From the NCBI GenBank assembly GCA_025544715.1, contig GCA_025544715.1_4109.3: DNA of 64,000 nt; one strand, 5' to 3'. The translations under genes were made by a program, and so were the position numbers. Origin of the DNA: Escherichia coli (lineage in GTDB: Bacteria; Pseudomonadota; Gammaproteobacteria; Enterobacterales; Enterobacteriaceae). Shown here piece by piece: positions 8,117 to 33,096 of the stretch. Position 1 is the stretch's first letter; the number at the start of each line of letters is the position of its first letter. The notes under the pieces are model-generated. The model was given only the letters and a program-made list of their open reading frames with translations, did not search any database and was not told where the DNA came from.

Positions 8117-8539
8117 TTAAATTAATCTGTCACGTAGACGGTCGTAATATTTTTTGTGTATAGCTAGTATACACTGATATGCAGAATAGTCAATACCAAA
8201 TGTATCATCAATGAACATGTACTGATCAAGTGTTTCGGGTCCATTATCATCAACTGGTAATGTCCCTTCTTTTTTTGATAGTGTGTGCCACATCAACTCA
8301 CTTTCAATATGGTGAGTTGCGTATGTCAATTCTATCTTACTTTTTCGTAGTAAAATTAACAATTCATCATTGTCGTCGAGTGCATTACGAAATTTAATAC
8401 GAACTGTACCCTGGAAATTATTAGTGTACATAACACGATGATGATTGTATGAAATCAAACCACGCCTTTCAGTACTGATTTCGTGTTCAGCAAAGTACTT
8501 TAACGTTTCATTAAATTTTGGAATTTTAGTAACGTCCAA
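8117..8539 (-). CDS. Hypothetical protein, tandem paralog A
   Basis: Shares YMFIDDTFGIDYSAYQ-like block with adjacent ORF 8526-8942. Confidence 0.5.
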   Translation of the reverse strand: MDVTKIPKFNETLKYFAEHEISTERRGLISYNHHRVMYTNNFQGTVRIKFRNALDDNDELLILLRKSKIELTYATHHIESELMWHTLSKKEGTLPVDDNGPETLDQYMFIDDTFGIDYSAYQCILAIHKKYYDRLRDRLI

Positions 8540-8942
8540 TCACATAATCCTCATAAAGTTCGTATACCCTCATTATACTCTGATATGTATCAAAGTCAAT
8601 ACCAAAGGTATCCTCAATGAACTGATATTGCAAAAACTCTTCCTCTGTGGCAGCAATAGGAAGAGTCCCGTTTCGTTGTTCTGGGGATTGAACATCCTCA
8701 ATATACATCAACACTATACCTTCATCCAGATTTATATCTATCATAAAAACATCTTCACTATAAAATATGTTATATGTACGGATGAAGAGATTTCCTGTTC
8801 TATCATAACTTGACACGTGTGTTTCATAATACATTTTATCTAAACTAAAGAACAAACCTGTACTATCTGGCTTTTTAGTATTTTTTAATTTAATTTCGAT
8901 AGCATCAATAATAGGTTTAATATCAAACTTTTTCATAGACAA
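8526..8942 (-). CDS. Hypothetical protein, tandem paralog B
   Basis: Shares YQFIEDTFGIDFDTYQ block with 8117-8539. Confidence 0.5.
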   Translation of the reverse strand: MSMKKFDIKPIIDAIEIKLKNTKKPDSTGLFFSLDKMYYETHVSSYDRTGNLFIRTYNIFYSEDVFMIDINLDEGIVLMYIEDVQSPEQRNGTLPIAATEEEFLQYQFIEDTFGIDFDTYQSIMRVYELYEDYVIGRY

Positions 8943-9118
8943 ATCACATACTTATTACTATGTGGGTCGTAACAATATGAATCATTTACCTTAATACCAG
9001 GCTTAAGTTCAATAGTTGTTCCTGTTTCAGTACTGGATTCCGCATCACAGTAAATCATCACACCAACTCCTGCGAGTAATGCTACGATACATACAATTAC
9101 ACCAATGGTATATTCCAT
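8933..9118 (-). CDS. Small membrane protein (61 aa)
   Basis: Hydrophobic N-terminal segment. Confidence 0.4.
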   Translation of the reverse strand: MEYTIGVIVCIVALLAGVGVMIYCDAESSTETGTTIELKPGIKVNDSYCYDPHSNKYVICL

Positions 9119-9131
9119 TTCAATTCCTCGG

Positions 9132-9527
9132 TTATAAAAAGTAATTATACATTTTATTGTACAATATAAAAAGATCTTTCACATTATCATAAGTAATATC
9201 AGATACATCATGAATTAATGATAACTGAAAAAATGAAGCTTCGTCTATTTCTGCTGGAATTATAACATCACCATCGTCTTCGTCCATTTTATTAGTGTAG
9301 TATTTTATGTGATCTACATTCAACTCAATAGAGAACGCAATGTTGGTTTTTGTATAATCTTCAATTAATCCAATATATTGAGATTTTTCATTAATAAAAA
9401 ATCCAATCCCAATACAACGGTTATCTGTATATGGATAGTACCATCTATTAATAACTAGGTGTTCAGGTAAGTCCATATCATGTGTTGATATTAGAGATTT
9501 TACAATTTCCATCCAGGAATAATTCAT
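9132..9527 (-). CDS. Hypothetical protein (131 aa)
   Basis: ORF in array. Confidence 0.45.
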   Translation of the reverse strand: MNYSWMEIVKSLISTHDMDLPEHLVINRWYYPYTDNRCIGIGFFINEKSQYIGLIEDYTKTNIAFSIELNVDHIKYYTNKMDEDDGDVIIPAEIDEASFFQLSLIHDVSDITYDNVKDLFILYNKMYNYFL

Positions 9528-9542
9528 AATTAAAACTCCATA

Positions 9543-9569
9543 AGAAAAGGGACAGAATTAATCTGTCCC
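9543..9569 (-). terminator. Rho-independent terminator after hpf
   Basis: Hairpin GGGACAGA-loop-TCTGTCCC then T-rich tract. Confidence 0.6.
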
Positions 9570-9580
9570 TTTAGTCTATA

Positions 9581-9913
9581 TTACTCTTCGTTTTCTGTCA
9601 AATCATCAAGAACTGGGTGTTCTGGATGGTTTCGGCGGTGTAATTTAATGCTTTTGTCTTTACTGAATACAGTTTCCATCTTATCAAAAGATTCAACAAT
9701 TGCTTTATACAAATCAGCATCATCAGCAGTGACTGATTTACTACCAGCAGTTAAAGTTACAGCATATTGAGTTTTATGCTCTTTCTTAACATGAACACCA
9801 ATGTCTAGTACTGAAGAAGTACGGTACTTATCCAGACTTTTTGCTTCATTGTAAATAGCATCTTGGATTGCTGGAGTGATATCAACGTTGCCTTGAATAT
9901 TTAGATTTAGCAT
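9581..9913 (-). CDS. hpf: Ribosome hibernation promoting factor (HPF/RaiA family)
   Basis: N-terminus MLNLNIQGNVDITPAIQDAI...KSLDKY parallels E. coli HPF MQLNITGNNVEITEALREFV...KLEQY from memory. Confidence 0.7.
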   Translation of the reverse strand: MLNLNIQGNVDITPAIQDAIYNEAKSLDKYRTSSVLDIGVHVKKEHKTQYAVTLTAGSKSVTADDADLYKAIVESFDKMETVFSKDKSIKLHRRNHPEHPVLDDLTENEE

Positions 9914-9929
9914 ATTTCACCTTCCTTTT

Positions 9930-10889
9930 TTAGAGTGAACTTAACAACAAATCTGCTCGGTTTGTAACTTGACGATACCATAAGGAATTCATGATTTCTT
10001 TTTTAAATTTCTTAGGGTTATCATTTTTTACGCTTTTCCAAAGCTTATTAAACGTAGCCAATTTATCGACACCCATTGTATAGGACATTTCAAAAAGAAT
10101 ACGTTGTTGTTCTTTGGTCAGATTTACTGCTTCTTTTTTCTGCATCAACAATAAAAAGTCATTATATGTTCTTTTCATATCTTGCATTAAAAGTTTATTG
10201 GCTTGAGCTTTGGTAATACCGTTTCTGTACTTAATCGCATCAGATTCTTTTCTACCCAAATAATGCCCATAACCTATTGTATAATTACCTTTCATGTCCT
10301 TGTAGGGATGAAATTTAGAATTGTGGAAAGGAACTCCGACTTTCCCACCAAGTAAACGGCGTTTGTTCTTGGACTGAAATTCAATTGAACCTTCAGCTTC
10401 TTTGATGTGATTGACAATTTCTGGATCATTATAATCAAACAGTACAGTCACATCTGGTAACAATACGTTCTTCAAATCCTCTTTTGTTGGGATAAAGATA
10501 CCCTGAGAAGTATGAAGAGTAGCATTTAAATTGATATTTTTCAACAAAATAACATACTCTTCAAGTTGTACATTTTTAGGTTTAAACTTTTTAGCAATAG
10601 AATAATAACTATCACCAGGTTGAACCGTATAATGCTTCTCGCCGCGTGGAACATCCTTTGATATTTCTACCTTTGGTAATTCCTGCTTTTGAATTTGCGT
10701 AACTTGTGGTTTTAAATTGTGTACCTGACTTTCGTCCGATGATGATACACGATCATTTTGAGAAAAACCATAAAATCCAATCGCAGCGACAAGTACTGTG
10801 CAAACTAGAACACCATAAGTAGTCTTAGTTTTCAGTGCTTTTTTCGCTTGTTTCAAAACGCCTCCTTTGTTGATTGTTAAGATGGGCAA
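9930..10889 (-). CDS. Membrane-anchored LysM plus T4-lysozyme-like (GH24-like) protein
   Basis: N-terminal TM segment, LysM-like HYTVQPGDSYYSIAKKF, C-terminal domain aligning to T4 lysozyme (YKDMKGNYTIGYGH); catalytic Glu position appears to be His. Confidence 0.65.
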   Translation of the reverse strand: MPILTINKGGVLKQAKKALKTKTTYGVLVCTVLVAAIGFYGFSQNDRVSSSDESQVHNLKPQVTQIQKQELPKVEISKDVPRGEKHYTVQPGDSYYSIAKKFKPKNVQLEEYVILLKNINLNATLHTSQGIFIPTKEDLKNVLLPDVTVLFDYNDPEIVNHIKEAEGSIEFQSKNKRRLLGGKVGVPFHNSKFHPYKDMKGNYTIGYGHYLGRKESDAIKYRNGITKAQANKLLMQDMKRTYNDFLLLMQKKEAVNLTKEQQRILFEMSYTMGVDKLATFNKLWKSVKNDNPKKFKKEIMNSLWYRQVTNRADLLLSSL

Positions 10890-19763: not shown

Positions 19764-20183
19764 TTACAACATTTTTTGAATATGTTCTGCTAGTTCATAC
19801 AGCTTAGTTTCATTATTCTCGAACTTTTCATCAACTTGAACATTGAATTTTTCTTCTAGTTCCATGACCATTTCAATCCAATCAAGCCAATCAAAATTGA
19901 ATTTTTCTTCAACTTCCAATTTAGTAAGATTGAAGTTCGCTAATACATCATTCTCTGATGTATCAGAGTAACGAGTAGTGATGAATTTGACAATTTCTTT
20001 TTCAACATCGTTTAATTCACTAGTTTGATATTCTGGCTGAAGATACCACCATTCTCCCTTATTAATAGATTCCAATTCTTGTTTGATTTCATGCATTACT
20101 TTATAACGGTCAGTACTTTTATGAATAGAATTAACTTCTTGATTCAATACATGTAGTGCATTTTTAATACGTTCATTTAACAT
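19764..20183 (-). CDS. Acyl-carrier-protein-like protein with N-terminal extension; Ser to Trp at pantetheine site
   Basis: FDWLDWIEMVMELEEKFNVQVDEKF aligns with ACP helix II DSLDTVELVMALEEEF; codon TGG at Ser position. Confidence 0.5.
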   Translation of the reverse strand: MLNERIKNALHVLNQEVNSIHKSTDRYKVMHEIKQELESINKGEWWYLQPEYQTSELNDVEKEIVKFITTRYSDTSENDVLANFNLTKLEVEEKFNFDWLDWIEMVMELEEKFNVQVDEKFENNETKLYELAEHIQKML

Positions 20184-20195
20184 TTTATCACCTTA

Positions 20196-20226
20196 TAAAA
20201 AAAGAGAACTCCATATGAAGTTCTCT
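20196..20226 (-). terminator. Rho-independent terminator after 929-aa gene
   Basis: Hairpin AGAGAACT-loop-AGTTCTCT then T-rich tract. Confidence 0.6.
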
Positions 20227-20257: not shown

Positions 20258-23047
20258 TTATAAATCACGGAAACGATTTGGTGTGTTTAAACGGTACATT
20301 GAGTATAACCCCAATCCACGCATAATCTCACCTGCCCAGAAACCAAAAAACATACCATTATCAGTACCTTCTCTAACTGCTGGACTCCATGATCCATTCA
20401 TTGGGGAACTTGGATTTACAATAACATAATTCTTTTGAAGTTCTAAAACTAAGTTATCAGCGAGTGTCGTTAGACCTTCTATTTTACATCCAGCTAATCC
20501 AGCAGCACAAGCCCCAGCTAACCACAACCCACACATATGACCTGTAAAGTCCCAATCTGGTCCTTCAACTGTGCCATCTTTATTGAAGATTGTTGGTGAA
20601 CGACCATCATTATCTTTTTGAAATTGAATTAAAAAGTGAATCCAATTCTCACAAAAATCAACAAGATCTGCTGGTGGTTCGATTCCTCTTTCTGCAAGTT
20701 CTTGCCATGCTCTTGCAGCCCCAAAGAATGCACGAGGTTCATACCCGCTCCATGCTTGATCTCCCCAGTGTAGCATTGTGAACGTGTCTGGTTCACCATA
20801 TTTTAAGTTATCCCAGCGGTTCCAAACATATGCTTGTGCACATGGACCAACAGTACCGAATTGTTGAGTAAACCATGTTTGAGAATCTTTCATAAAGCTT
20901 AACATGTTGCCTAAACGTGTGTTATCTACTGGTTGGTCTTTAAAACAATATATCACTGGATACTGATAACCAGGATAAGGCAATCCACGCCAACCAGAAT
21001 ACTGATTCGCATACGGGTCAGTGATGTTAGAAAATGGTATTGTTCCAGGAGTGTAATGCAATGAGTTTAACAAATAATCTTTGATTACACAATCCCCTAA
21101 CTGTGCAGTATAAGGTGATTCACCTGCAATTGTTATTGAGAATGTCATGGTATAGTCATCACCGTCAGCATCCGTATATAATTCTGGAATGTCATTAATA
21201 CAATACCAATCAATTATTGCAGCAACACCATCTACTGGGGTTGTATCAGGTAAAATAGTAATATCTTCTAGCTCACTATAAACTGGTGCATCTGGTCTTG
21301 GATCAGAACTTGGATGATTTGGCTGATACCCAGATAAACGTAATGTATCAGAACTTAGTGTGATAGTAGTCCATTCCCCGTGTGTTGCAGGAATCATCCA
21401 CCACCATCTCCAACCATTATCATCTACAATTCGTATATTATAATCATCTTCATATGAACGATATGTGAAAGATTTAACTTCAGACTTATTTGTTGCTAAT
21501 AACCAAAATCCAATAACAGCACCATCATCTTCACCACAAACCAACTGATTAATTGTATCGCGTCTTGTGATTAATATATCAGTACTATATAACATTTCTG
21601 ATGTAGCTGCACCATAAGGAACAACAATTCTACTATCAGCAATTATATAAGGGGAACCATCTGCTTTCTTTTCTCTAACAAATGCACTTAAAGGTGTTAA
21701 TGAATGTGTGATATTTTGGTCTTTACTTTCTGGTAAGCCGCAACGATAACGAACAACATCATGGTCATTTTTTGTTTTTGACAATTCCAGTACTGGTTTA
21801 AATGATAACGGTTTACCATCATCGCACACGCCACCATAGTCAACTAGCAATTTTGAATCAGCATTTACCCTGAACCAAATAGCTTGTTGCTCCATCGTAC
21901 TCTGTGCACTTTGGTCTTGTCTGATAGTAATGTATCCTAACGAATTTCTACCAAACTTAGCAATAGCATCACTTGGATAAAAATATTCATAGGAAATACC
22001 ATCAGTGAATGGTGTGGTTACAATTGTACTTTGTCTGAAAAATTTATCTCTGGAGTCGATATCACCATAAGCATAGCATGTGAGTAGTGAACATTTCCAA
22101 CCCAAATAATGTTTTCTTTCTTTAGTTATTTTATATAACAAATACGAAGCATCACTGAACCATAATTCTGCATCTGATGCGTTATCAGCAAATTCTAAAT
22201 TAATTGGAACATGAAGTGGGCGGTTGTGTTGCATTTCATTTCGTTGAATTATTACACCACCATATTCTACTGGTTGACGATTAGCAAAATTTAATTTATA
22301 TACACCATTAATTGTTGTATTCTTTAATTGAACAGTTCCTTTTTCAGATTCGTCAAAACCTTCTGCTAAAATATTACCATCCCAGTCGATTTTTCTACCC
22401 ATGAAATCAATAACCCAGTCAACATCATATTGTTCACCTGGTGTATCCCAATCAACACTACCATCTGGTAATAAAGCTTTTACTGACGCATTTATTTGGT
22501 TCCATGCTAAAGCACCTTTGAATGCAAATGTCACTTTATCCAAGAACTGACCATAATATGGTGCACCATGTGGTATTTTGCATTGACCATTAGTAAATGT
22601 AAATTCTACTCCCTTGAAACCACCATGTGTGGGCCAGCCATCATCAGCTAAAGGCCAGTTAGCCAATATAGGTTCTTTTGCATTAACTATCCAGTTACAT
22701 TGTAGCGGTGTAGGTGGATCTGGTAATTCACGTCCAGCATAAAAGTACTGATGATATGCGTCCCAATACCACTTTGCCTTATCTAAAAACATTGGATCAT
22801 TTGTAGCCAGATATGCATAAATGTATCCTAAAATTAATAGACTTTGACCTTCTGTTGTCCCGTCACCGTTTGGTTGACCTTCCATTGCAGAATAGTTAAT
22901 AAAATGGCGGTTGTTCGCCAAAACACCCTGATTGTTCACCACATAATGCTGTACTGTTGGGTCTATTGTATCACCAGTATTTCTTTCAATAAATTTGTGA
23001 TGCCCATAAAGAAGTTGTACAATATTATCAATATTATTGTTTAACAT
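20258..23047 (-). CDS. Large protein (929 aa), unknown function; possible glycosidase-like or virion-associated
   Basis: Long ORF; Trp/Gly-rich C-terminal region; followed by terminator. Confidence 0.55.
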   Translation of the reverse strand: MLNNNIDNIVQLLYGHHKFIERNTGDTIDPTVQHYVVNNQGVLANNRHFINYSAMEGQPNGDGTTEGQSLLILGYIYAYLATNDPMFLDKAKWYWDAYHQYFYAGRELPDPPTPLQCNWIVNAKEPILANWPLADDGWPTHGGFKGVEFTFTNGQCKIPHGAPYYGQFLDKVTFAFKGALAWNQINASVKALLPDGSVDWDTPGEQYDVDWVIDFMGRKIDWDGNILAEGFDESEKGTVQLKNTTINGVYKLNFANRQPVEYGGVIIQRNEMQHNRPLHVPINLEFADNASDAELWFSDASYLLYKITKERKHYLGWKCSLLTCYAYGDIDSRDKFFRQSTIVTTPFTDGISYEYFYPSDAIAKFGRNSLGYITIRQDQSAQSTMEQQAIWFRVNADSKLLVDYGGVCDDGKPLSFKPVLELSKTKNDHDVVRYRCGLPESKDQNITHSLTPLSAFVREKKADGSPYIIADSRIVVPYGAATSEMLYSTDILITRRDTINQLVCGEDDGAVIGFWLLATNKSEVKSFTYRSYEDDYNIRIVDDNGWRWWWMIPATHGEWTTITLSSDTLRLSGYQPNHPSSDPRPDAPVYSELEDITILPDTTPVDGVAAIIDWYCINDIPELYTDADGDDYTMTFSITIAGESPYTAQLGDCVIKDYLLNSLHYTPGTIPFSNITDPYANQYSGWRGLPYPGYQYPVIYCFKDQPVDNTRLGNMLSFMKDSQTWFTQQFGTVGPCAQAYVWNRWDNLKYGEPDTFTMLHWGDQAWSGYEPRAFFGAARAWQELAERGIEPPADLVDFCENWIHFLIQFQKDNDGRSPTIFNKDGTVEGPDWDFTGHMCGLWLAGACAAGLAGCKIEGLTTLADNLVLELQKNYVIVNPSSPMNGSWSPAVREGTDNGMFFGFWAGEIMRGLGLYSMYRLNTPNRFRDL

Positions 23048-23048
23048 A

Positions 23049-23585
23049 TCATACTCCTGCTCTAATTAATGCACCGTACCATGTAACTCCTTTATCATAT
23101 GTTTCTAATGAAATAATATCTTTTTCACCAATTTCATAAGAAAGAACAACTGGTCTATTATATGACCATTTAACATTTGAACCCCAATTAACGAGGTTAG
23201 ACCCTGTTTGCTGAGTTAATAGGATAGTAATTGAATAAACTTCAGTAGGAGCAGCACCAATAGCAATAGTGGTATTTCTGTCAGATAAATTAATATTAAA
23301 AACTGTATTACCTGATAGGGGATTAATTAAAATATTATTAGAACTCAATACATTATATAACTTGTTACTAGCACTATCATACAATGTTACCCATTCTGTT
23401 TCATGATTCTCATTAGTAGCTTTAGCTTTTATTTTTACATTATTTTCGGAAGAAGTCATTCCAGTCCAGCCAGAAATAATAAAAGAACTGTTTTTATTTG
23501 TTCCAAATGATGCAATTACCGAATCACTAAGAGAACTATCTTCACCGTCAATAGATCCGAGTACTGACAATGTTAAAACCATCAT
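23049..23585 (-). CDS. Hypothetical beta-rich protein (178 aa), possibly fibre-like
   Basis: Ser/Thr/Asn-rich composition. Confidence 0.45.
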   Translation of the reverse strand: MMVLTLSVLGSIDGEDSSLSDSVIASFGTNKNSSFIISGWTGMTSSENNVKIKAKATNENHETEWVTLYDSASNKLYNVLSSNNILINPLSGNTVFNINLSDRNTTIAIGAAPTEVYSITILLTQQTGSNLVNWGSNVKWSYNRPVVLSYEIGEKDIISLETYDKGVTWYGALIRAGV

Positions 23586-23748
23586 TTTTAATGTCTACAC
23601 CAGTTGCACCTGAAAAATTATTTTGAAATTTAATAACTCCGGTAGTGTGGATATCTGTGAAAATTTGTTGTGCCATACTTAATCCTTGCGTTAATTTATA
23701 TTGAGTATTTATCGAGTATAATGGCATTTTTAGTACCATTATACTCAT
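23548..23748 (-). CDS. Hypothetical protein (66 aa); may be joined to 23049-23585 by frameshift
   Basis: 38-nt out-of-frame overlap with downstream ORF. Confidence 0.3.
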   Translation of the reverse strand: MSIMVLKMPLYSINTQYKLTQGLSMAQQIFTDIHTTGVIKFQNNFSGATGVDIKNDGFNIVSTRIY

Positions 23749-23753
23749 GTATA

Positions 23754-24986
23754 TTACTTATACCATTGCATTTCTCTGATATCAATGATAATTTTTGATG
23801 CTAATTTAATGTTTGGTTTTTTGGGAAGTACTGATTTCTTATATAGAACATCACGAATGTATTGTACTTTATCATCGAAATATTCTAATACTTCTTCATA
23901 CTTCCACTTACCATTACGAATATCCATCAACATTTGTGCATCAGGTCGTTTAACTTGAATAATTCCACTCTGTAATGCTTCTTCTGCACTATTCAAAAGT
24001 CTAATTGTGTGCATAGCATGTTTACAATCGTATCCGTGTTGTGATTCTAAAATAGCACGTTTGGCATTACGATTTTCTTTCCATTTATGATAACTTTTCC
24101 TATTCTCACTATTCTCCTGATATTCTTTTTCGTTAAATTTTACAATTAGTTCTGGTTTGGTTTTCAACTCTTCAGTACTACGTTCTTTAGAAAAATAACG
24201 CAATGAACCATCATGGTTAATAGTGCTTTCATTAGGATTCTTAACAATCGCAAAAATGTTTTCTCCGTAATGAATTAGTTCATAACCATTATTAAAATTC
24301 AATAAATTGAAATCACGATCAAGAATTTTTTCAGTAGTGTAGTTATGTACTAATCTTACGAAATGATATTGCTTTAATGGATTTTTCGAAACTAACTGCA
24401 ATGATGTATCACGCATATATTTTTCAAAATCAATCTTTTTAGCATTAAATGGATGTAAGTTGGATGTATCTAAACGTTCAACAAGATACTGTGGGAATGA
24501 ATCATACATCCACGCAAGAACCTCATCGACAGGGTGTTCTTCTAAAATCTCATTTAATCGTTTTTCAGCAATACGCTCTTTATCCATCCAACCGTGATGA
24601 TTTGTCATACGCTTAATCTGATTATATGCATATCCAGTGTATGAAAATGCAATCTTGGAACTAAGAAGTTTTTGGTTAAATGAACGAAGATAGTCATAAA
24701 TTTCAGTACTTTCAACAATGTGTTCAGGTTCAACCCAAAGTGATTCAAGAATATTAGGGTTAGCTTCAGTGTATAATTTTAAATACTGATTCAACTCATA
24801 GAATTTAGTATCTTCTTCGCTTTTATCAGCTACCTCTTTGACCTTATAGAAGGGTGTAAGAATAAATTCTTTATTAGCAAGAAAAATACCACGATAATCA
24901 GTATCACTTTCAGGTGTACTGGTTCCGTAGGCTTGTGACCCAGCCAAGTGTTTCACTATTGTTTGTTCAATATATTGGTTATTCAT
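23754..24986 (-). CDS. Pol-beta-superfamily nucleotidyltransferase
   Basis: N-terminal motif GSQAYGTSTPESDTDYRGIF (GS...DxD). Confidence 0.5.
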   Translation of the reverse strand: MNNQYIEQTIVKHLAGSQAYGTSTPESDTDYRGIFLANKEFILTPFYKVKEVADKSEEDTKFYELNQYLKLYTEANPNILESLWVEPEHIVESTEIYDYLRSFNQKLLSSKIAFSYTGYAYNQIKRMTNHHGWMDKERIAEKRLNEILEEHPVDEVLAWMYDSFPQYLVERLDTSNLHPFNAKKIDFEKYMRDTSLQLVSKNPLKQYHFVRLVHNYTTEKILDRDFNLLNFNNGYELIHYGENIFAIVKNPNESTINHDGSLRYFSKERSTEELKTKPELIVKFNEKEYQENSENRKSYHKWKENRNAKRAILESQHGYDCKHAMHTIRLLNSAEEALQSGIIQVKRPDAQMLMDIRNGKWKYEEVLEYFDDKVQYIRDVLYKKSVLPKKPNIKLASKIIIDIREMQWYK

Positions 24987-25386: not shown

Positions 25387-25896
25387 TTAACCACCATACT
25401 TTGACTTGTATGTTTCAAGTGATAAAGATATACGATTTTGCTTTTTAATTCTTTCATCAATATCCTTTGAATTCTTCACACTTCGGTATACGTCAGCTAA
25501 TAAATTATAATCTTCTTTATTTGAGCTATGCTGTGTCCAACCTATGTCTGTTTTAATACGAACACTTGCTTTATTTGACCAGTAAAAGAAACTGAAACCA
25601 TTTGACCCATCAAAAATATCAAAAGTATCTACCCAATCACCATAAGGAAAACTCGTCGGGACTGACTCGTGGTCGATTGTGATATCCGATAAATTGTTTG
25701 AACAGTACTTCGCAAAGTGATAAACAATTGGATCACATTTAGATAATTCATATTTGTATTCAATGATAGTTTTTCTATTAGCATCATTGATAGCATATTC
25801 TTTCATCAATGGGCTTTTTTTGATGATAAGAGTCCACAGAAACGATTCTAATCCGGTTTCATCAACTTTTTGTTTCTTTTTGAAAAATGAAATCAT
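25387..25896 (-). CDS. Hypothetical protein, member 1 of tandem triplicated family
   Basis: Shared block DxxRKxIIEYKYxLSK with the next two ORFs. Confidence 0.5.
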   Translation of the reverse strand: MISFFKKKQKVDETGLESFLWTLIIKKSPLMKEYAINDANRKTIIEYKYELSKCDPIVYHFAKYCSNNLSDITIDHESVPTSFPYGDWVDTFDIFDGSNGFSFFYWSNKASVRIKTDIGWTQHSSNKEDYNLLADVYRSVKNSKDIDERIKKQNRISLSLETYKSKYGG

Positions 25897-26414
25897 TTAT
25901 ATAAACCCTTAATTTTCTGTCTATTATGTATATCATTTTGCTGGATTTTCAATTTAGTAAGGTTGTTTCTTACACCTTCAACTCCACGCATTATTTGTAA
26001 CATAATTAGTGATTCGTCATATGTTAGTACATTGCTATTATTATCGATATATACTTTCACTCCACTTTCAAGATAATCATTTTCTTTGGAGTTAAAGTTT
26101 CTAATAGCAAACTTAACTTTATTTGTTGTATCACTGAATACATATCGTTCCGCACCGTAGAATGTTTTTCCACGAAATAAACCGCCGTCTTCCCACTTCC
26201 AACGGCTAGATTCATAATCATTAACGTAATCAAGGATTAAAGAAAGTAAAGGATGTTTACTTAATTTATATTTTGCTTCTAACAGGATACGTCTATCATT
26301 ATCTGTGGTGATAATATCCTTTAGTGAGTAGCTTTTAGATATAATTTTAAAGATAATTTCATGCCAAATTAATGTACTGTTTTGTTTTCCAACTGATCCA
26401 AAAAACATATCCAT
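25893..26414 (-). CDS. Hypothetical protein, member 2 of tandem triplicated family
   Basis: DNDRRILLEAKYKLSK and SSRW blocks. Confidence 0.5.
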   Translation of the reverse strand: MDMFFGSVGKQNSTLIWHEIIFKIISKSYSLKDIITTDNDRRILLEAKYKLSKHPLLSLILDYVNDYESSRWKWEDGGLFRGKTFYGAERYVFSDTTNKVKFAIRNFNSKENDYLESGVKVYIDNNSNVLTYDESLIMLQIMRGVEGVRNNLTKLKIQQNDIHNRQKIKGLYK

Positions 26415-26420
26415 TCCTCA

Positions 26421-26987
26421 TTAGTATAAATCAGTAATGTCTTTGTATGCATTAATCTGTTTTTGTTGTAATGAAAGTTCATTGAGTTTAGTTACCATCT
26501 TATCTACACCAACACGTGTATAGAAAATAATTAATGAATCTAAATTGCCTAGAGTAATTCTTGAACTGTAAGTTGAAAGTTTTCTTGCATAAACATAAAT
26601 TTCTTCTTCACTTGGTAAACGTTTCTCAATCAGCAAGTTTTCCACACCATTCGGCTCATAATCAATCTCGAACTCTACGCCTATCACTGTGTCTTGAATG
26701 CGATCCGTATATGAACCACCGTAAAAATACTCTCTTGGTTTGGATCTCCAACGAGAACTAAATGGGTCTGTTGCGTATTCTTTTACAAATTTGTAAAAGG
26801 ACATTTTACTGAGCATATACTTCATCTCAATTAGTGCTTTGCGGTCATCATCAGTTTTAAACTCTGCTTTGAGCGATGGACTTTTACACAGTAACTTAAC
26901 TAAATTGTTGTACATCTTTAATGTACGTTGTTCTTTCATTTCTTTGATTTTGTGACGTTTTGGTGGTGGTAATAAAGATTTGACCAT
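26421..26987 (-). CDS. Hypothetical protein, member 3 of tandem triplicated family
   Basis: DDDRKALIEMKYMLSK and SSRW blocks. Confidence 0.5.
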   Translation of the reverse strand: MVKSLLPPPKRHKIKEMKEQRTLKMYNNLVKLLCKSPSLKAEFKTDDDRKALIEMKYMLSKMSFYKFVKEYATDPFSSRWRSKPREYFYGGSYTDRIQDTVIGVEFEIDYEPNGVENLLIEKRLPSEEEIYVYARKLSTYSSRITLGNLDSLIIFYTRVGVDKMVTKLNELSLQQKQINAYKDITDLY

Positions 26988-27054: not shown

Positions 27055-29784
27055 TTATTTCCAACGTGTACCTGGACCTGATGGTACACCAGTACTGGCA
27101 GGTATCGCTGAACCACGTTTCGTTGTACTTGGGCGATATGTCAAAAAACGAGTCACTTTTTCAGTATCAATCGAAGTAATTCCTGAAGTTCCAGTAACTA
27201 TCTTACCAATGTAAGTGCTAGTTAAAGATTCATCAATAGTTTCAGTACTAATAACATATGACGCTTTCTTAGTATTCCTGTTCATTTGTATATACAAATA
27301 GAACGTAGTATTAGCTGGATTACTTTTTACCGTACTTAAATCTACACTTTGTATAGGTAGTCTGTCGAAAATTCCACCTAAAAACACCGGAACTTCACGT
27401 GTAAAGTACACTGAGAATCCTTGTGCAACGTCTTGTGATACTACCACAATCTTTTCTTTAACGCTACCATTTCCGCTAATTAAACCATCCATTTCAGCAG
27501 ATGTTGTACCAAAAACGCTGAATACAGATTTGGTTTGATAGTCAGAATCTTGAAAATTGTAATATCCAAAACCAACACCAGGAATAACACCATGTTGATA
27601 TGCTGCACCGAGTTGGATGTAACTAGATGACAAAAAACGATTTGATGTTATGACACCATCTACCGTTTTAGCTATCATCATCTTAAATTGTGCATTACCT
27701 GGTTGTGAAAATTGATGAACTGCATCAACACCAATGTAACCGAATCCTGAATATTTAGCAACTGTTAGACCAGTACAACGTTTCATATATGCTTCAGTAA
27801 TAATTCCTGTAACAGAACTAAGTGTCTCATATCTAGTACTTACCAATGAAGCTGAAGTTATGTTAGTTCCAGATAATACAACATCAACTTCGGCATAAAT
27901 TGCATAACCTTGGTTATTGTTAAGATTATATGCTGAAACTACTGCAATGGATTTAGAAAAAGTATTATCAGGTACATAATATAATACAATTTGTCCAGAT
28001 AGTGTACCAACAATGCCAGAGTTTCCTAGATTAGCAAAAATATCTTGTTTTAATGATTCTAATACCGTTGGTTCTATTGTATATGTTTCATCAAATTCTA
28101 AAGTATCTGGGTTTAATAATCCACCACTTGTTTTATATACACCTTCAATGAATGATGTTCCATAGCATCTAACACTACCATCGGTATCAACAAGAGAAAT
28201 CATAGCAGTGTATGTAAAATCATCACCTATTTGTTTACGATTAGATTGTGGTGCAAAACCATTTAATGTAGTATTATTTTGAACTGAGTTATATTGATAT
28301 GTTGGTTGTGAGCCTATTTCAGAAAAAACAGTATTATTATAATTATATGTTACATCATCATACGTACCAGAACATGCTAATAATATTTTTCTATTATCGA
28401 TGAAACGTACACCTAATAGGTTTGCACCAACAGCACTACCAAAAACTGGTAAAACGTTTGCATTTATAACGTTACTTGCGGATCTAGTACTAGCAACCCA
28501 TGAATCAAACGGTGTGCCACTAACCTTATATCGTTGTAGACCATAAAATTCAGTTGAACTCCATCTAAATTTAGATGCAAATACTAAACCATCTTTGGTT
28601 TGACATAAACCACCTGCGTTTCCTAATACACCAGCAGCAGTTGTCCCAGTGAAGTTGACCATATCGATTTCAAATGGGTTAGAAACTTGAAATCCATTAT
28701 TATATGAAACTGTAGCAGGAGCACGAGCAGAACCATCTAGTGACATAGATTTTGAGTTTATATTATAAACAAAACTGATACCAGTACCATACACTGTTGA
28801 AATATATAAAGGTGTAACCATTCTATGTGTTGGGTATAAAGTTACACGTATTTTGGATAAATCAGTACTAACGTTTGCTTGTATATTAAAGTCTGTATAA
28901 TCCGAAAATTCTACACGTGAGACTGGTGATGTAACTTCGAATAATGAATCCGAGCTAGTACCAACACTATATAATCTATCAAACACTCTTATGTTATTAG
29001 ATGCAGAATAACTTGTATTTCTAACAGTTTGCCCTGATAATCCAGTAACTTTTGTTAATGATGCCATTGAGCTTGCTTTCACATCACTTAGCTCTACTGT
29101 ATAAATTGAAAGTGCTAATCCTAAATTAGAAACACTTTTATCTTTACACCAAATATATACTTTTGTTCCAACAATATGAGTATATATAGGCATATCATTA
29201 CCAAAAGAAGTACTTGGTACTTTAGCATGAATATGTGATACTTCGTTGAATGTACCATTAGTTATAGTAAAAATATAATTATCTTCTGTACTTAAACATC
29301 CAAGCATTTCATAACCATTAGAGCCAATAAAATACTTAATATTCTCTGTACTACTCATAATTGAAGGTTTATACATTGAATTGGTTGAAATAACACTTTC
29401 TTGTGAAATCATGGTTATATTTCTGATTTCTCGTATAAATGAATAATAAAAACCTTTAGTACTGCCATTCGTCCCACTACGTAGAACAACAGCAGTACCA
29501 TCATCTTCAATAATAGTCGGTTGAACAACTTGATCACTTGACATAGGTGTAGCACCTTCATACGACCCACTTACGTTTAATGGTAAGTAATCCATTTCTC
29601 CTACACGTGATATAGGCAACATATCTAAAATACTTTGAACTTCAGAACGCTTGTATATTGGATATTGAACAATTCCAGTATTTGCATTCGGTGAGGTTCC
29701 ATTGAAAGTACGCATAGCGTACCTTCCTCCAATTGCTAAGTTCCCAAGGATCTCGGCACTTCCTATAATTCGTTTTGATGACAT
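27055..29784 (-). CDS. Tail-fibre-like large protein (909 aa from ATG 29784), paralog of 30400-33096
   Basis: Start MSSKRIIG parallels paralog MSKKIYGG; track start 29874 would overlap upstream gene; shared C-terminal module incl. KSNPANTTFY. Confidence 0.5.
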   Translation of the reverse strand: MSSKRIIGSAEILGNLAIGGRYAMRTFNGTSPNANTGIVQYPIYKRSEVQSILDMLPISRVGEMDYLPLNVSGSYEGATPMSSDQVVQPTIIEDDGTAVVLRSGTNGSTKGFYYSFIREIRNITMISQESVISTNSMYKPSIMSSTENIKYFIGSNGYEMLGCLSTEDNYIFTITNGTFNEVSHIHAKVPSTSFGNDMPIYTHIVGTKVYIWCKDKSVSNLGLALSIYTVELSDVKASSMASLTKVTGLSGQTVRNTSYSASNNIRVFDRLYSVGTSSDSLFEVTSPVSRVEFSDYTDFNIQANVSTDLSKIRVTLYPTHRMVTPLYISTVYGTGISFVYNINSKSMSLDGSARAPATVSYNNGFQVSNPFEIDMVNFTGTTAAGVLGNAGGLCQTKDGLVFASKFRWSSTEFYGLQRYKVSGTPFDSWVASTRSASNVINANVLPVFGSAVGANLLGVRFIDNRKILLACSGTYDDVTYNYNNTVFSEIGSQPTYQYNSVQNNTTLNGFAPQSNRKQIGDDFTYTAMISLVDTDGSVRCYGTSFIEGVYKTSGGLLNPDTLEFDETYTIEPTVLESLKQDIFANLGNSGIVGTLSGQIVLYYVPDNTFSKSIAVVSAYNLNNNQGYAIYAEVDVVLSGTNITSASLVSTRYETLSSVTGIITEAYMKRCTGLTVAKYSGFGYIGVDAVHQFSQPGNAQFKMMIAKTVDGVITSNRFLSSSYIQLGAAYQHGVIPGVGFGYYNFQDSDYQTKSVFSVFGTTSAEMDGLISGNGSVKEKIVVVSQDVAQGFSVYFTREVPVFLGGIFDRLPIQSVDLSTVKSNPANTTFYLYIQMNRNTKKASYVISTETIDESLTSTYIGKIVTGTSGITSIDTEKVTRFLTYRPSTTKRGSAIPASTGVPSGPGTRWK

Positions 29785-29800
29785 CTTTCTTTTCCTTAAT

Positions 29801-30388
29801 TTACCAACCAATTGTACCAGTTTCTGATGGTTTCCCAGTACTGACTGGGAATGAAGAACCTTTTTGTGTAACACTAGGTCTATATGTACTAAATCTGGAT
29901 ACTTTATTAATGTTTATATTTGTAATGCCACTTGTACCAACGGTAAGAGTTCCAATAAACATTATAATTTCAGATTCTTGTATTTGTGTTGGTGATACTT
30001 TATATATTGGTTCACCGAGAACTAACGTTGCATATACATATTGTGTTTGTGTCCCAGATGAAACTGTTGAAGCAAAAATAGAAACTGCTGGAAATTTATA
30101 AAGATAACCACCAATAAATGATGGTATTTCTCTATTAAATGTAAGACTATAACCAGACGAAGTAATATTTAGACTTGCATCATCATACAATTCACCGTAT
30201 TGTGTGAGTGGTAATCCATTTACAATAAAATTAACTTCATCTTTAGTAATAGAGGGGAATGTACATTCCCCATTTGAATTTGTTGGGTAATAAGTCATAT
30301 TATTACCTAATACACCAAGTCCAGTACTTTTACCCTGTACTGTAACTTGTTGCATTGCCTTAAGGTCTGCTCTTATTTTATATGCCAT
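29801..30388 (-). CDS. Short fibre-like protein (195 aa) carrying the shared C-terminal module
   Basis: C-terminus SSFPVSTGKPSETGTIGW parallels large paralogs. Confidence 0.5.
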   Translation of the reverse strand: MAYKIRADLKAMQQVTVQGKSTGLGVLGNNMTYYPTNSNGECTFPSITKDEVNFIVNGLPLTQYGELYDDASLNITSSGYSLTFNREIPSFIGGYLYKFPAVSIFASTVSSGTQTQYVYATLVLGEPIYKVSPTQIQESEIIMFIGTLTVGTSGITNININKVSRFSTYRPSVTQKGSSFPVSTGKPSETGTIGW

Positions 30389-30399
30389 TATGTAATCCT

Positions 30400-33096
30400 T
30401 TACCAGTTTATGGTTCCTGTTTGTGATGGTAGACCGTAGCTAACTGGGAACGATGAACCTGCTGATTCAAGTGAAGCACCAAATATATCTAAACGTGAAC
30501 GTTTTTGTATATTAATTGTTTCGATTTGAATTGCATTAGTTTGAATTGTACCTATCCAAAAAATATTATATGCAGTTGTTCCTGTTTCAGAAATAACATC
30601 AGTAGTTATGTAATAGTTTGCCAATCCTTGGTCCAATTTAACATATACATAAAATGTTGTATTTGCTGGATTAGACTTAATAGTTCTCAAATCAATATTT
30701 GAAACTGGTAGTGAAAATGACTTACCTGAAAGAATAACTGGTGTTTCTTCTGTAAAATATACAATAAACCCTTGAGCAACGTCCTGTGATACTACGTTAA
30801 TTGGGCTACCTTGTGCAGTCCAGTTATTATAGTCTGTAATCGTTGTCCCATATTTTTTGAATGTCATTTTATTTGAGTAATCCATTGGTTCAAAAATTCC
30901 AAAACCAATACCAGGTAACGCTGCTGGTTGACTTCCCTGTTCATAACTGGCATGAGAACCAGTAATTATAAAACTTGTAAATTGTGCAGTTGATTTAGTT
31001 ACATATGCTCTAAATTGATGAGTTGCAGTATTACCTATTGTTGGATGTGATAATGGGTCAGAACCACCAATGAAGTAGAATGAACCTCCATCATATATTG
31101 TCAAACCAACAGAAGAAGATGCAATCGAACCATTTCCAGTTGGTGTAAAGTTATCACCATACGTATTCTCAAGTACTAAACGCTTGAATGTAATAGATGT
31201 AATATTACCAACTCTAGTATTGACGTTAACTTCAGCAATTCTAATATAGTTTCTATAATCATTAGTAATTGTACTCAACATAACAAAAGCTGGAATGTCT
31301 GTTTGTTGTGGAACAAATAGTGTCATATCACGGTATGCTTGTGGTGATAAATTCCAATCACTTAGAACTTTAGCATATTCAGTATTTCTAAAATTGTCCA
31401 GTACTGATTGTGTAACACTTATAATGCCTGTACCATTTAAGTTTTTATCATAGGATAATGATTGTGAATAACGTTGCCCAACCATAAAAATACCACCATT
31501 GGTTGTAACAGTTGACCCAGAAATACTACTAATGAAAATTCTATTATTTGCATTATCATCAACGTTAGCACGTTCAACTGTAGGTTCATAACCTTGTATT
31601 GTTCCTAAAGATAATGATTTAAATGTAAAATTAGGAGTACTTTTATGAACTGCATATGATGGTCTAAATCCACCACTACCTGATGCACGTGAATATTGTT
31701 TAGTACTGTTATCTGGTAGTAATTCTACACCATTAATAAATGAACCAACCGCTGAACCAAAAGACGGGCGAACTATACCACCTTTGAAGTCAGTAGAAAG
31801 TACAGCACGCACATTCAGCATACTATAAACTATTTGAATAGGAAACTTAGCTTTTTGCATAAGCAATGGTTCTGCTAAGTTTGGACATGCAGTACAAAAT
31901 GCTTCACCTGAATTTAAATAAAAATATGAACTGTAAATATTCCTTGCATTTGCATGGTTATACAATGGATCGTTATTTAAAACGTTTCCAGTAGGAACTA
32001 ATGCTGAACCGGTATCAGTAATAACTAATGGTGCTTGGTATGAACCAATATCATTACCTGCATCTAATGTACATTGTTTAGTACTCATGTTGAATACAAA
32101 ACTGTAACTATGTTGTGGTCGTGTATTATAAGTTGCCATTGTGAACCAAGCATCACCATTCATTCTAAAGCGGAAGTTCTGTGTACCTGGCTGCTGTGCA
32201 ACACATAAATCGATTGATGTCATGTAAATCCCAATACCACGTAGATTTTTTGGAACATACACATAAGGTTTATCAGCGATATTTGTTGATGTTACCTGAT
32301 TAGTTATAACCATATTATTTTGTGCAGAATAAGTTGTGTTATAAAATGTTTTAGTAGTCCATCCAGTAACACGAGTTGCGGTATAAGTACCATTACTGAT
32401 ATTATAAACCACTTTAACTACAACTAATTGTAATTGGTTATTTGCATTAAGTACGTTAAAAACATATATAGAACCATCTTCTGCCATCATAGCATATTCA
32501 ATACCACCTTCAGGTGATATATCTGCTTGGTTAACGAAAAAACCAGTATGCAATTTATCATCTAATGTACCATTAGTAATTGATATGAACAAACCATTAG
32601 TACTGTTAGAAGTGTCTACATATCTACCGAGTAAAATATTTGGATCAGTATTGTATAAGCCAATTGCGACTCGATTAGAACCGAAAAAACCAGGCTTGTA
32701 TTGACGACTGGTGTTAATTGTACGGCTCATGTCATCAACTGATAATGCGTTAGCCAAATATGAATAAAATAATCCCTCAACACTACCGTTTGTTCCACTA
32801 CGTAAAAGTACTAGTGTACCATCGTTTTCTAATAAAATTTTATTTCTACGTTGGGTCTGGTTTTCGGATGCACCATTGAAATCTCCAGAAACACCAGCAG
32901 GTAGATAGTTTTGTGAACCATAATGGGAGATTGGCATCATGCTTACTATATCTAGTACTTCATCTCTGGAATACGTGTCTAATTCCATGTTACCATTTGA
33001 ATCAAACACTTGTTCATTTATTCCTTGAATTGTTCTTTTACCATTAACTGTCACATTATGTGTGACATCTAAGCCACCATATATTTTCTTTGACAT
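30400..33096 (-). CDS. Tail-fibre-like large protein (898 aa)
   Basis: Paralog of 27055-29784; TATAAATA-like box upstream; Ser/Thr/Asn/Gly-rich. Confidence 0.5.
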   Translation of the reverse strand: MSKKIYGGLDVTHNVTVNGKRTIQGINEQVFDSNGNMELDTYSRDEVLDIVSMMPISHYGSQNYLPAGVSGDFNGASENQTQRRNKILLENDGTLVLLRSGTNGSVEGLFYSYLANALSVDDMSRTINTSRQYKPGFFGSNRVAIGLYNTDPNILLGRYVDTSNSTNGLFISITNGTLDDKLHTGFFVNQADISPEGGIEYAMMAEDGSIYVFNVLNANNQLQLVVVKVVYNISNGTYTATRVTGWTTKTFYNTTYSAQNNMVITNQVTSTNIADKPYVYVPKNLRGIGIYMTSIDLCVAQQPGTQNFRFRMNGDAWFTMATYNTRPQHSYSFVFNMSTKQCTLDAGNDIGSYQAPLVITDTGSALVPTGNVLNNDPLYNHANARNIYSSYFYLNSGEAFCTACPNLAEPLLMQKAKFPIQIVYSMLNVRAVLSTDFKGGIVRPSFGSAVGSFINGVELLPDNSTKQYSRASGSGGFRPSYAVHKSTPNFTFKSLSLGTIQGYEPTVERANVDDNANNRIFISSISGSTVTTNGGIFMVGQRYSQSLSYDKNLNGTGIISVTQSVLDNFRNTEYAKVLSDWNLSPQAYRDMTLFVPQQTDIPAFVMLSTITNDYRNYIRIAEVNVNTRVGNITSITFKRLVLENTYGDNFTPTGNGSIASSSVGLTIYDGGSFYFIGGSDPLSHPTIGNTATHQFRAYVTKSTAQFTSFIITGSHASYEQGSQPAALPGIGFGIFEPMDYSNKMTFKKYGTTITDYNNWTAQGSPINVVSQDVAQGFIVYFTEETPVILSGKSFSLPVSNIDLRTIKSNPANTTFYVYVKLDQGLANYYITTDVISETGTTAYNIFWIGTIQTNAIQIETINIQKRSRLDIFGASLESAGSSFPVSYGLPSQTGTINW

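Follow-up and report, generated by a model that had tools for sequence, protein, structure and literature searches.

A predicted split (α/α)6-barrel tail protein and its adaptor gene in a 121Q-like jumbo coliphage

We analysed a 64,000-nucleotide stretch of DNA from an Escherichia coli assembly (contig GCA_025544715.1_4109.3; "the window" below), which, judged from its sequence, is a 121Q/PBECO4-like jumbo coliphage (Asteriusvirus). Our subject is the gene at 20258..23047 on the minus strand, which encodes a protein of 929 residues. We consider it fairly probable that this protein is an accessory, virion-borne glycan-processing enzyme that is mounted on the tail by an adaptor, the product of the gene just upstream. 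This reading draws on a predicted (α/α)6 barrel fold, on invariant residues that resemble the catalytic motifs of known glycoside hydrolases (GH), on the presence of an orthologue in virions, and on a linkage to the adaptor gene that recurs across very different phages.

The original prediction for this gene, made from the letters alone, gave its coordinates exactly but did not state the strand. The open reading frame (ORF) runs uninterrupted for 929 codons on the minus strand, from 23047 to 20258, and the plus strand over the same interval is packed with stop codons, so we regard the gene as real. It starts with an ATG at 23047 that has an AGGAG ribosome-binding site on its 5' side. The upstream ORF ends with its stop codon just 1 nt before this ATG, so translation of the two genes is coupled. 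The protein had been called rich in tryptophan, tyrosine, and glycine; tryptophan (3.3%) and tyrosine (5.6%) are clearly enriched, while glycine (8.1%) is barely so.

The gene matches 19 phage records at 95-96% nucleotide identity (99% amino acid identity), and these matches identify it as orthologous to 121Q gp509 and to phAPEC6 Gp314 (96% nucleotide identity). Gp314 was detected in purified virions of phAPEC6 by liquid chromatography with tandem mass spectrometry (105.34 kDa, 8 peptides, 13% coverage; PMC7247149), and the same authors listed it among three tail-fibre candidates that were selected in silico (PMC7247149). The virion association that had been proposed for the 929-residue protein therefore holds for a 96%-identical orthologue. 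The annotations of the orthologues are inconsistent ("tail protein", "tail fiber", "tail formation protein GpI", or "hypothetical"), and none of them describes the fold. The best PHROG is phrog_2871, "tail protein", which covers residues 2-926 (hmmscan, E = 0, 1507 bits).

More distant relatives are widespread. Full-length relatives at about 50% identity are found in assemblies of Enterobacter, E. coli, Pseudomonas, Shewanella, Spongiibacter, and Gluconobacter, as well as in numerous metagenomic contigs, and tblastn found the barrel protein in 531 phage records. These include phi92 (gp141, 57% identity over the full length), rV5-like phages (31%), T7-like podophages such as Yersinia phage ISAO8 (where the protein is annotated as "glycosyl hydrolase"), myophages of the SE13/UPF_BP2 type (~53 kb), Erwinia phages of the phiEa104 type (~84 kb), the jumbo phages of Seoulvirus (~240 kb) and Serratia phage PCH45 (213 kb), the N4-like Stenotrophomonas phage Philippe, and many Vibrio phages. 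(Phage S144, of the genus Loughboroughvirus, has been described as highly related to SE4/SE13; PMC7432712.) An exhaustive search of 1.84 billion protein representatives with a hidden Markov model (HMM) yielded 382 family members, 178 of them at E ≤ 1e-30. At the sensitivity of HMMER, the family appears compact and distinct and stays separate from the large families of cellular glycosidases.

The 929-residue protein thus adds a member to a family of phage tail proteins that is known but uncharacterised. Gp141 of phi92 is called a "Glycosidase" in a review that cites Schwarzer 2012 (PMC5380687), and a cryo-electron microscopy (cryo-EM) study of phi92 from 2026 does not mention gp141 (PMC13450770). 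Our search of the literature turned up no family member that has been characterised biochemically or structurally, and no account of the adaptor cassette. What we add is the split-barrel architecture, a set of candidate catalytic residues, the universal adaptor cassette, and a probable +1 frameshift in the adaptor gene.

Predicted fold of the 929-residue protein

AlphaFold2, given an alignment of 53 sequences, produced a full-length model with a predicted local distance difference test score (pLDDT) of 89.8 and a predicted template modelling score (pTM) of 0.84. Long helices fall within residues 4-101, 290-327, and 708-918, and the regions 119-273 and 351-655 are rich in β-strands. In the model, residues 1-118, 274-350, and 661-928 form one (α/α)6 six-hairpin barrel, with two β-rich inserts between the segments (CBM is short for carbohydrate-binding module):

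22694..23047, minus strand: barrel segment 1 (residues 1-118), with helices 4-21, 64-81, and 84-101 and the motif TTEGQS, which contains the invariant E65
22229..22693, minus strand: β-insert A (residues 119-273), from the AlphaFold2 secondary structure; as conserved as the barrel (majority fraction 0.68)
21998..22228, minus strand: barrel segment 2 (residues 274-350), with helices 290-307 and 310-327 and the motif NASDAE, which contains the invariant D291 and E293
21068..21997, minus strand: β-inserts B1/B2 (residues 351-660), jelly-roll or CBM-like, with the invariant D541 and W547 in DDNGWRWWW
20261..21067, minus strand: barrel segment 3 (residues 661-928), with six long helices and the invariant Y690, Q694, Q722, W741, R743, and R771

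The β-inserts B1/B2 are the most variable part of the protein (conservation 0.51-0.54), and their description is based on Foldseek matches to tandem CBM22 modules, discoidin domains, and cupin-type β-sandwiches.

To obtain a model of the barrel by itself, the two β-inserts were deleted in silico, which left a construct of 463 residues, and the spliced window sequence was aligned to intact homologues. AlphaFold2 predicted a single compact domain with 11-12 long helices (pTM 0.89), which implies that the N-terminal, middle, and C-terminal helical segments build a single barrel. When this predicted model was compared to the PDB with Foldseek, all of the top 50 matches were (α/α)6 carbohydrate enzymes (probability 1.00), with target-normalised template modelling (TM) scores of 0.4-0.75. 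They include CPF_2247 of GH126 (0.72-0.75), mannanases of GH76 (0.71), cellobiose and glucose 2-epimerases (0.53-0.66), and GH8 endoglucanases such as BcsZ from E. coli (0.55-0.61), as well as a GH8 xylanase, GH48, and GH88/GH105. The original prediction had spoken of a C-terminal region reminiscent of α/α-barrel glycosidases: the fold stands, but not its confinement to the C-terminus, as the barrel is assembled from all three segments.

The search with the full-length model was noisy. At a probability of 1.00 it returned (α/α)6 enzymes only (GH48 and GH88), followed by a GH78 rhamnosidase (0.99), glucuronyl C5-epimerase (0.89-0.95), and β-sandwiches of the CBM22 type. Its top matches by E-value (GH101 EngBF fusions, Vip3, and vicilins) had TM scores of about 0.1 and were rejected as meaningless. 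β-helix proteins, which would be expected for a classical tailspike, were absent from the fold matches of both the full-length and the barrel-only models. The label of a tail spike, which had also been raised, does not hold in its classical sense, and neither does that of a classical fibre, for a protein with no β-helix, no coiled fibre, and no anchor domain. Apart from this label and the C-terminal placement of the barrel, the earlier interpretation is largely right. The authors of the study of S144 came to a similar view: its orthologue, ORF17, had an HHpred match to a hydrolase, and they judged its model not to be fibre-like (PMC7432712).

Profile searches gave a similar picture. The barrel-only profile matched PDB sequences of GH76 (4v1r, E = 8.3e-5; 4c1s, E = 4.5e-3), which are marginal matches driven by the hairpin repeat, and it also matched cellobiose 2-epimerases and a protein named "six-hairpin glycosidase". 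With the whole-family profile, GH76 was the only match in the PDB, at 0.063. The weak Pfam matches in individual family members are all to families of α/α-barrel enzymes (GH76, GH47, GH127, and C5-epimerase). Of the hallmarks of the six-hairpin (α/α)6 superfamily, a barrel of about 12 helices is thus seen in the predicted models, and profile similarity to solved members is detectable at marginal significance.

Candidate active site and enzymatic alternatives

We looked for invariant residues in 61 homologues down to 33% identity, with eight divergent members added (those of rV5, Vibrio phage D531, PCH45, ISAO8, SPFM4, phi92, and Philippe, and one P2-like fusion). Just four acidic residues are invariant across the 61 sequences: E65, D291, E293, and D541. 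R337, R743, R771, Y690, Q694, Q722, W547, and W741 are invariant as well. In the AlphaFold2 models, E65 and D291/E293 lie at the N-termini of inner helices.

The fold by itself does not point to a single enzyme family. The motifs around these acids resemble those of BcsZ, a member of GH8: TTEGQS (with E65) and NASDAE (with D291 and E293) correspond to TSEGQS and SASDGD. A third motif, GIS followed by LHYTPGTIPFSN…WRGLPYPGYQYP, resembles GLGSMLLPGKVGF…WRFNPSYLPP of BcsZ and coincides exactly with the break that the large β-insert makes in the barrel. A local hhalign comparison with the profile of the BcsZ family was collinear over the whole domain (28-446 with 29-360) and paired E65 with E55 of BcsZ and D291/E293 with D116/D118; the alignment is weak (P = 0.038, probability 1.4%). 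For BcsZ, experiments have defined Glu55 and Asp243 as the catalytic residues (PMC11379886). The proton donor of GH8 is a glutamate in (S/T)-E-G-Q at the N-terminus of an inner helix, and here E65 of TTEGQS has this context and is invariant in 61/61 sequences.

Several observations weigh against the view that the 929-residue protein is a glycan-processing enzyme, or against its link to GH8. Besides the weak statistics of the local alignment, BLASTP and whole-profile hhalign comparisons with BcsZ were not significant, and the Pfam model for GH8 (PF01270) gave no match at a cut-off as loose as E ≤ 10, either in 53 intact sequences or in 7 without the inserts. The residue equivalent to the base of BcsZ, D243, is D753, which is aspartate in 48 and asparagine in 12 of the 61 sequences. 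As this position is not conserved, a complete catalytic pair could not be identified; candidates for the base are E293, D541, D745, and E906. The intact protein has no match in Pfam, NCBIfam, or the PDB sequences, and no enzymatic activity of any family member is reported in the literature that we could reach. That the invariant residues cluster in one cleft is something we infer, and non-hydrolytic epimerases and isomerases are equal in rank among the fold matches. Finally, identity stays at about 50% from phages of E. coli to those of Pseudomonas, Shewanella, and Gluconobacter, which is atypical of depolymerases that act on capsules or O-antigens. Such conservation across phages of Enterobacterales, Pseudomonas, Vibrio, and Gluconobacter favours a widely shared glycan as the target over a serotype-specific capsule or O-antigen.

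Given that only the local hhalign comparison was collinear, and weakly so, we do not claim membership in GH8. Nor does GH76 fit: the best score to its Pfam model is 20.1 bits, in one member (the cut-off is 25.9), and no Asp-Asp pair is invariant among the family sequences, as would be expected for the adjacent catalytic aspartates of GH76. In our reading, these proteins form a distinct family of the six-hairpin superfamily, with an arrangement of an acid and an aspartate like that of GH8 and clan GH-M, and outside of both GH8 and GH76.

The rank of the epimerases raises the question of whether the protein might modify a polysaccharide without hydrolysing it, as an epimerase, isomerase, or lyase akin to the AGE/cellobiose-2-epimerases, glucuronyl C5-epimerase, or the α/α-toroid lyases. 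Among the best fold matches of the barrel, rank 1 included, are 2-epimerases of cellobiose and glucose and related isomerases. Glucuronyl C5-epimerase was matched by the full model, and its Pfam model (PF06662) matches one family member weakly. Also, the invariant R337, R743, R771, and Y690 and the near-invariant H47 could serve such chemistry. We nevertheless think that this is very unlikely. Enzymes of the AGE type are metabolic, act on mono- or disaccharides, and need conserved pairs of histidines, and H273 and H836 are lost in the members from rV5-type phages; there is no polysaccharide lyase among the top 50 fold matches; and the two best-conserved motifs resemble those of GH8 hydrolases. 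We also know of no virion-borne epimerase.

The two-gene cassette and a possible mode of action

The gene just upstream of the barrel gene is represented in the window by two overlapping ORFs, which we consider to be parts of one adaptor gene:

23049..23585, minus strand: the +1-frame part of the adaptor, an ORF of 178 residues (121Q gp508); phrog_32568, "tail fiber protein", E = 1e-118
23548..23676, minus strand: the frame-0, N-terminal part of the adaptor, an ORF of 42 residues (121Q gp507, phAPEC6 gp315c) that overlaps the 178-residue ORF and is collinear with the start of the adaptors that relatives encode as single ORFs
23554..23562, minus strand: the putative programmed +1 frameshift site, ACU-CGG-AUC, continuing as ACU-C-GGA

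The match to phrog_32568 agrees in part with the earlier remark that the barrel gene is preceded by small fibre-like proteins, as it identifies one such gene. About 100 residues at the C-terminus of the adaptor are conserved in gp140 of phi92 (BLASTP, 1e-19), in a 189-residue protein upstream of the homologue in Philippe (6e-12), and at the C-terminus of a 560-residue protein upstream of the homologue in an Enterobacter prophage (2e-15). Against PDB sequences, the adaptor had no relative and gave only insignificant Ig-like matches.

We surveyed 80 viral contigs with the barrel gene, of which 5 had too little upstream sequence, leaving 75 that could be assessed. The adaptor domain is encoded 0-90 nt upstream of the barrel gene and on the same strand at 66/80 loci. 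At another 9/80, the barrel is part of a protein of 1097 residues, with about 180 residues of the baseplate protein gpI (PF09684) fused to its N-terminus. An adaptor or a gpI fusion is therefore present at 75/75 of the assessable viral loci, and the locus in the window itself has the adaptor. (PCH45 has a similar "tail protein I" of 1332 residues.)

The adaptor's N-terminal domain varies with the phage. It is the T7 tail fibre's N-terminal domain in ISAO8 (PF03906, 1e-8), Tail_spike_N (PF18668) in rV5-like phages, and a λ-type tail-tube domain in a sipho-type prophage (PF16461, 2e-5, slightly under the cut-off). Judged by these matches, the N-domain fits the type of virion, and the N-domains are exchanged as modules. 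In the siphovirus-type prophage of Enterobacter, the gene for the 560-residue adaptor with the tail-tube-like N-terminal domain lies at 8319..10001 of the contig that we call L002; this suggests that, in this prophage, the site of display of the barrel enzyme may be the tail tube (along it or at it) and not a baseplate.

In the AlphaFold2 model, the first helix of the barrel begins at residue 4, so the 929-residue protein lacks an anchor domain. This would be explained most simply if the adaptor's constant C-terminal domain docks the barrel protein and its exchangeable N-domain plugs the pair into the tail.

The setting of the cassette differs among phages. In P2-like elements, a fibre of the gpH type and its chaperone are still present downstream of the barrel cassette, which implies that the cassette is accessory there. 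In ISAO8, the pair occupies the gp17 slot between the internal core protein and the holin; this is the only fibre position, so there host recognition must involve the pair. The cassette of the jumbo phage is surrounded by non-structural genes (a nucleotidyltransferase upstream, and a protein resembling acyl carrier protein (ACP), a spanin, and an HNH endonuclease downstream). The gene numbering of phAPEC6 places it a long way from the main tail genes, and it has its own terminator.

The position in ISAO8 is one of the reasons to consider that the protein might only bind glycans: a lectin-like receptor-binding protein that uses a barrel derived from a glycosidase, together with its CBM-like inserts, to bind a conserved surface glycan, and that would form the distal portion of a fibre made of two proteins. 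The lack of conservation of a complete GH8-type catalytic pair (the variable D753) would fit this, as would the variability of residues 351-660, which is expected of a specificity determinant. However, pure binders usually lose their catalytic acids, and here three acids equivalent to those of GH active centres are invariant down to 33% identity, along with invariant arginine, tyrosine, glutamine, and tryptophan residues. Furthermore, binding and cleavage are compatible, and most enzymatic tailspikes do both. We therefore consider a non-catalytic role unlikely.

Another alternative is that the protein is a purely structural part of the tail or of the periphery of the baseplate, a hub or scaffold for other fibres whose enzyme-like fold is a relic. 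Its conservation is very high for a protein that contacts the host. In many phages its gene lies beside structural genes, such as between the sheath-initiator and fibre genes in phi92 or after the connector genes in S144 and the prophage, and fibre II and the arm of fibre I are unassigned in the cryo-EM study of phi92 (PMC13450770). But one would not expect a scaffold to travel as a plug-in cassette among podo-, sipho-, and myoviruses with interchangeable adaptor N-domains, or to be added to a complete P2 baseplate and fibre set. Also, the invariant residues are polar or charged and gather in the barrel and not in segments that are evidently interfaces. These observations make a structural role highly improbable.

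The adaptor of the jumbo phages itself is probably made by recoding. In a relative whose barrel protein is 75% identical (contig L095), the adaptor is a single ORF of 207 residues that is collinear with the 42-residue ORF followed by the 178-residue ORF. At the junction, L095 has ACT GGC ACC ATT, and the window, 121Q, phAPEC6, and the 80%-identical JNE01 have ACT C GGA TC(T/A) ATT, a one-base insertion. Amino acid conservation moves from frame 0 to frame +1 exactly at this junction, and the 9-mer ACTCGGATC is kept in the 121Q-like phages and in JNE01 despite diverged flanks. The codon at the site, CGG, is used 0 times among the 11,765 codons of 39 long ORFs in the window, and CGG occurs 91 times out of frame. 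The product of phAPEC6 gp315c, the frame-0 part, was found in virions at 69% coverage (PMC7247149); the 178-residue ORF is unannotated in phAPEC6. This pattern is what a programmed +1 shift at a "hungry" codon should leave behind, and we propose that such a shift at CGG probably yields an adaptor of about 208 residues. The alternatives are that the adaptor consists of two separate polypeptides or that the 178-residue ORF is initiated independently.

If these elements are put together, the cassette might work as follows. The core of the 929-residue protein would be the (α/α)6 six-hairpin barrel, carrying two β-sandwich modules, probably carbohydrate-binding, in its loops. The product of the upstream gene would mount the barrel protein on the tail, with its C-terminal domain of ~100 residues docking the barrel, and with an N-domain that is swapped to suit each virion (the T7 fibre N-domain, Tail_spike_N, a tail-tube-like domain, or a direct fusion to gpI). 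Once the phage touches a cell, a polysaccharide of the surface or matrix would be bound by the β-modules and cleaved in the cleft of the barrel by acid/base catalysis. E65 would be the proton donor, and D291/E293 would position the sugar in subsite -1, as in the inverting enzymes of clan GH-M (GH8 and GH48). Cleavage would help the phage to pass the glycan layer and reach its receptor. In 121Q-like jumbo phages, the pair would be one among several tail appendages, encoded away from the main tail module.

As to the substrate, the BcsZ-like motifs bring bacterial cellulose to mind, which is only a guess. (Phosphoethanolamine-)cellulose or another conserved β-linked polymer of the envelope or matrix would fit both these motifs and the spread of hosts (Enterobacterales, Pseudomonas, Vibrio, and Gluconobacter). 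A more specific proposal, which is possible if doubtful, is that the protein founds an undescribed GH family, distantly like GH8/GH48 and with CBM-type inserts, that acts on a glycan common to many Proteobacteria; that it is deployed as a two-gene plug-in in myo-, sipho-, and podophages, with an N-domain chosen per virion; and that Asteriusvirus makes its adaptor by a +1 frameshift at an unused CGG codon.

For the window, the 929-residue gene is an ordinary one, an orthologue of catalogued "tail proteins". The interest lies in the family, which spans 531 phage records and many prophages, and every tailed morphotype among phages of Gram-negative hosts, and which lacks a description of the Pfam or CAZy kind. 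If its members are active on a conserved bacterial glycan, they could become broadly useful reagents against biofilms or envelopes, and their activity would help to account for the way in which phages with a broad host range (phi92, rV5, and the 121Q-like jumbo phages, for example) handle glycan barriers. A constant docking domain combined with an exchangeable attachment domain would also be a design rule for re-targeting or arming engineered phages. And if the frameshift at the never-used CGG codon is real, it would be a rare case of +1 recoding in a phage tail gene and would correct the annotation of about 20 jumbo-phage genomes.

Surrounding genes and comparison with known systems

Two regulatory elements lie between the barrel gene and the next gene downstream:

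20226..20203, minus strand: intrinsic terminator with a 10-bp stem and a 4-nt loop, followed by a run of seven T; 31-55 nt past the stop codon
20228..20256, minus strand: perfect σ70 consensus promoter, TTGACA-17-TATAAT (12/12 match)

The strong terminator that had been noted after the gene is borne out: the hairpin has a free energy of -13 kcal/mol (z = -4.5), and 0/200 shuffled sequences fold equally well. The σ70 promoter is directly upstream of the hairpin and abuts it. It would be the predicted driver of the downstream gene at 19764..20183, as a transcript from it would begin within the 5' arm of the hairpin and so would escape termination. That gene (minus strand, 139 residues) has weak similarity to ACP (PF14573, 6.8e-4, and ACP families in PHROG); it is annotated as ACP in phAPEC6 and as hypothetical in 121Q.

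The barrel gene had also been described as the largest complete ORF in the window. Mechanically it is not: the ORF at 27055..29874 (minus strand) is longer, at 939 residues from a GTG. However, the PHROG match of that ORF begins at residue 54 and its annotation in 121Q has 886 residues, so, of the real genes in the window, the 929-residue one is probably the largest. The 939/886-residue protein and the one encoded at 30400..33096 (minus strand, 898 residues) are paralogues of phrog_3573, of unknown function and with no Pfam match; one of the two probably has its orthologue in gp323c of phAPEC6 (98.6 kDa), a protein detected in virions. Between these large paralogues and the nucleotidyltransferase gene are three tandem paralogues, at 25387..25896, 25893..26414, and 26421..26987 (minus strand; 169, 173, and 188 residues), which match phrog_7868 and phrog_18641 crosswise and look like a local array of tandem duplications. 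The nucleotidyltransferase, directly upstream of the cassette at 23754..24986 (minus strand, 410 residues), is of the RlaP type (PF10127, the DNA polymerase β family of an RNA-repair pathway), and this neighbour is also kept in the more distant relative L095. The minus strand holds 39/41 of the ORFs of at least 150 residues in the window. The window has a negative GC skew along its whole length and yielded no tRNA genes.

Two other phage proteins were considered and set aside. The deacetylase fibre of the BASEL paper (Vequintavirinae and N4) is a different protein, as the fold predicted here is not that of a β/α deacetylase. Gp50, a fibre of φ80-18, appears to be a different and variable protein, and the paper on φ80-18 is silent on the cassette.

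The closest known counterparts of the 929-residue protein are 121Q gp509, phAPEC6 Gp314, and the PBECO4 orthologue, which are 99% identical over the full length and have neighbours identical to those in the window. There is no substantive difference from them, and the window represents another member of that phage group. In phi92, a small gene (gp140) likewise precedes gp141 and overlaps its start, and its C-terminal domain is the homologous one noted above. The two systems differ in that the pair of phi92 lies inside the baseplate and fibre module, whereas that of the jumbo phage lies among non-structural genes, and in that the adaptor of phi92 is a single ORF with no frameshift, whereas that of the window is split. 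Gp141 is not placed in the 2026 cryo-EM model (PMC13450770).

Among cellular enzymes, GH8 (BcsZ), clan GH-M (GH8 and GH48), and GH126 share the (α/α)6 barrel, as seen in the TM scores of BcsZ and GH126 and in the GH48 match of the full-length model. With GH8, there are also the collinear motifs (TTEGQS/TSEGQS, NASDAE/SASDGD, and G-x-x-x-x-x-PG-x-x-x-F…WR…P-x-Y-x-P). By our own reading, the PROSITE-type signature of GH8 is only partly kept (ASDAE, then divergent). The barrel here also contains about 460 residues of β-inserts, and the family is virion-borne, whereas BcsZ and GH8 enzymes are periplasmic or secreted. The α-1,6-mannanases of GH76 give the best match of the barrel-only profile at the sequence level (4v1r) and a similar fold (TM 0.71), but these matches rest on the generic repeat of helix hairpins ("YaYlaTkD..YLd.A"), and the catalytic dyad of GH76 (D136/D137 and D125 in PDB titles) has no invariant Asp-Asp counterpart in this family.

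Finally, the tailspikes and branched spikes of P22, CBA120, and G7C are likewise attached to the virion and directed at glycans, and they share Tail_spike_N (PF18668) with some of the cassette adaptors. In contrast to these classical tailspikes, the putative catalytic module here is an α/α barrel and not a trimeric β-helix; the enzyme and its anchor are separate polypeptides, which would be joined by a dedicated and conserved docking domain; and conservation of sequence across hosts is far higher.

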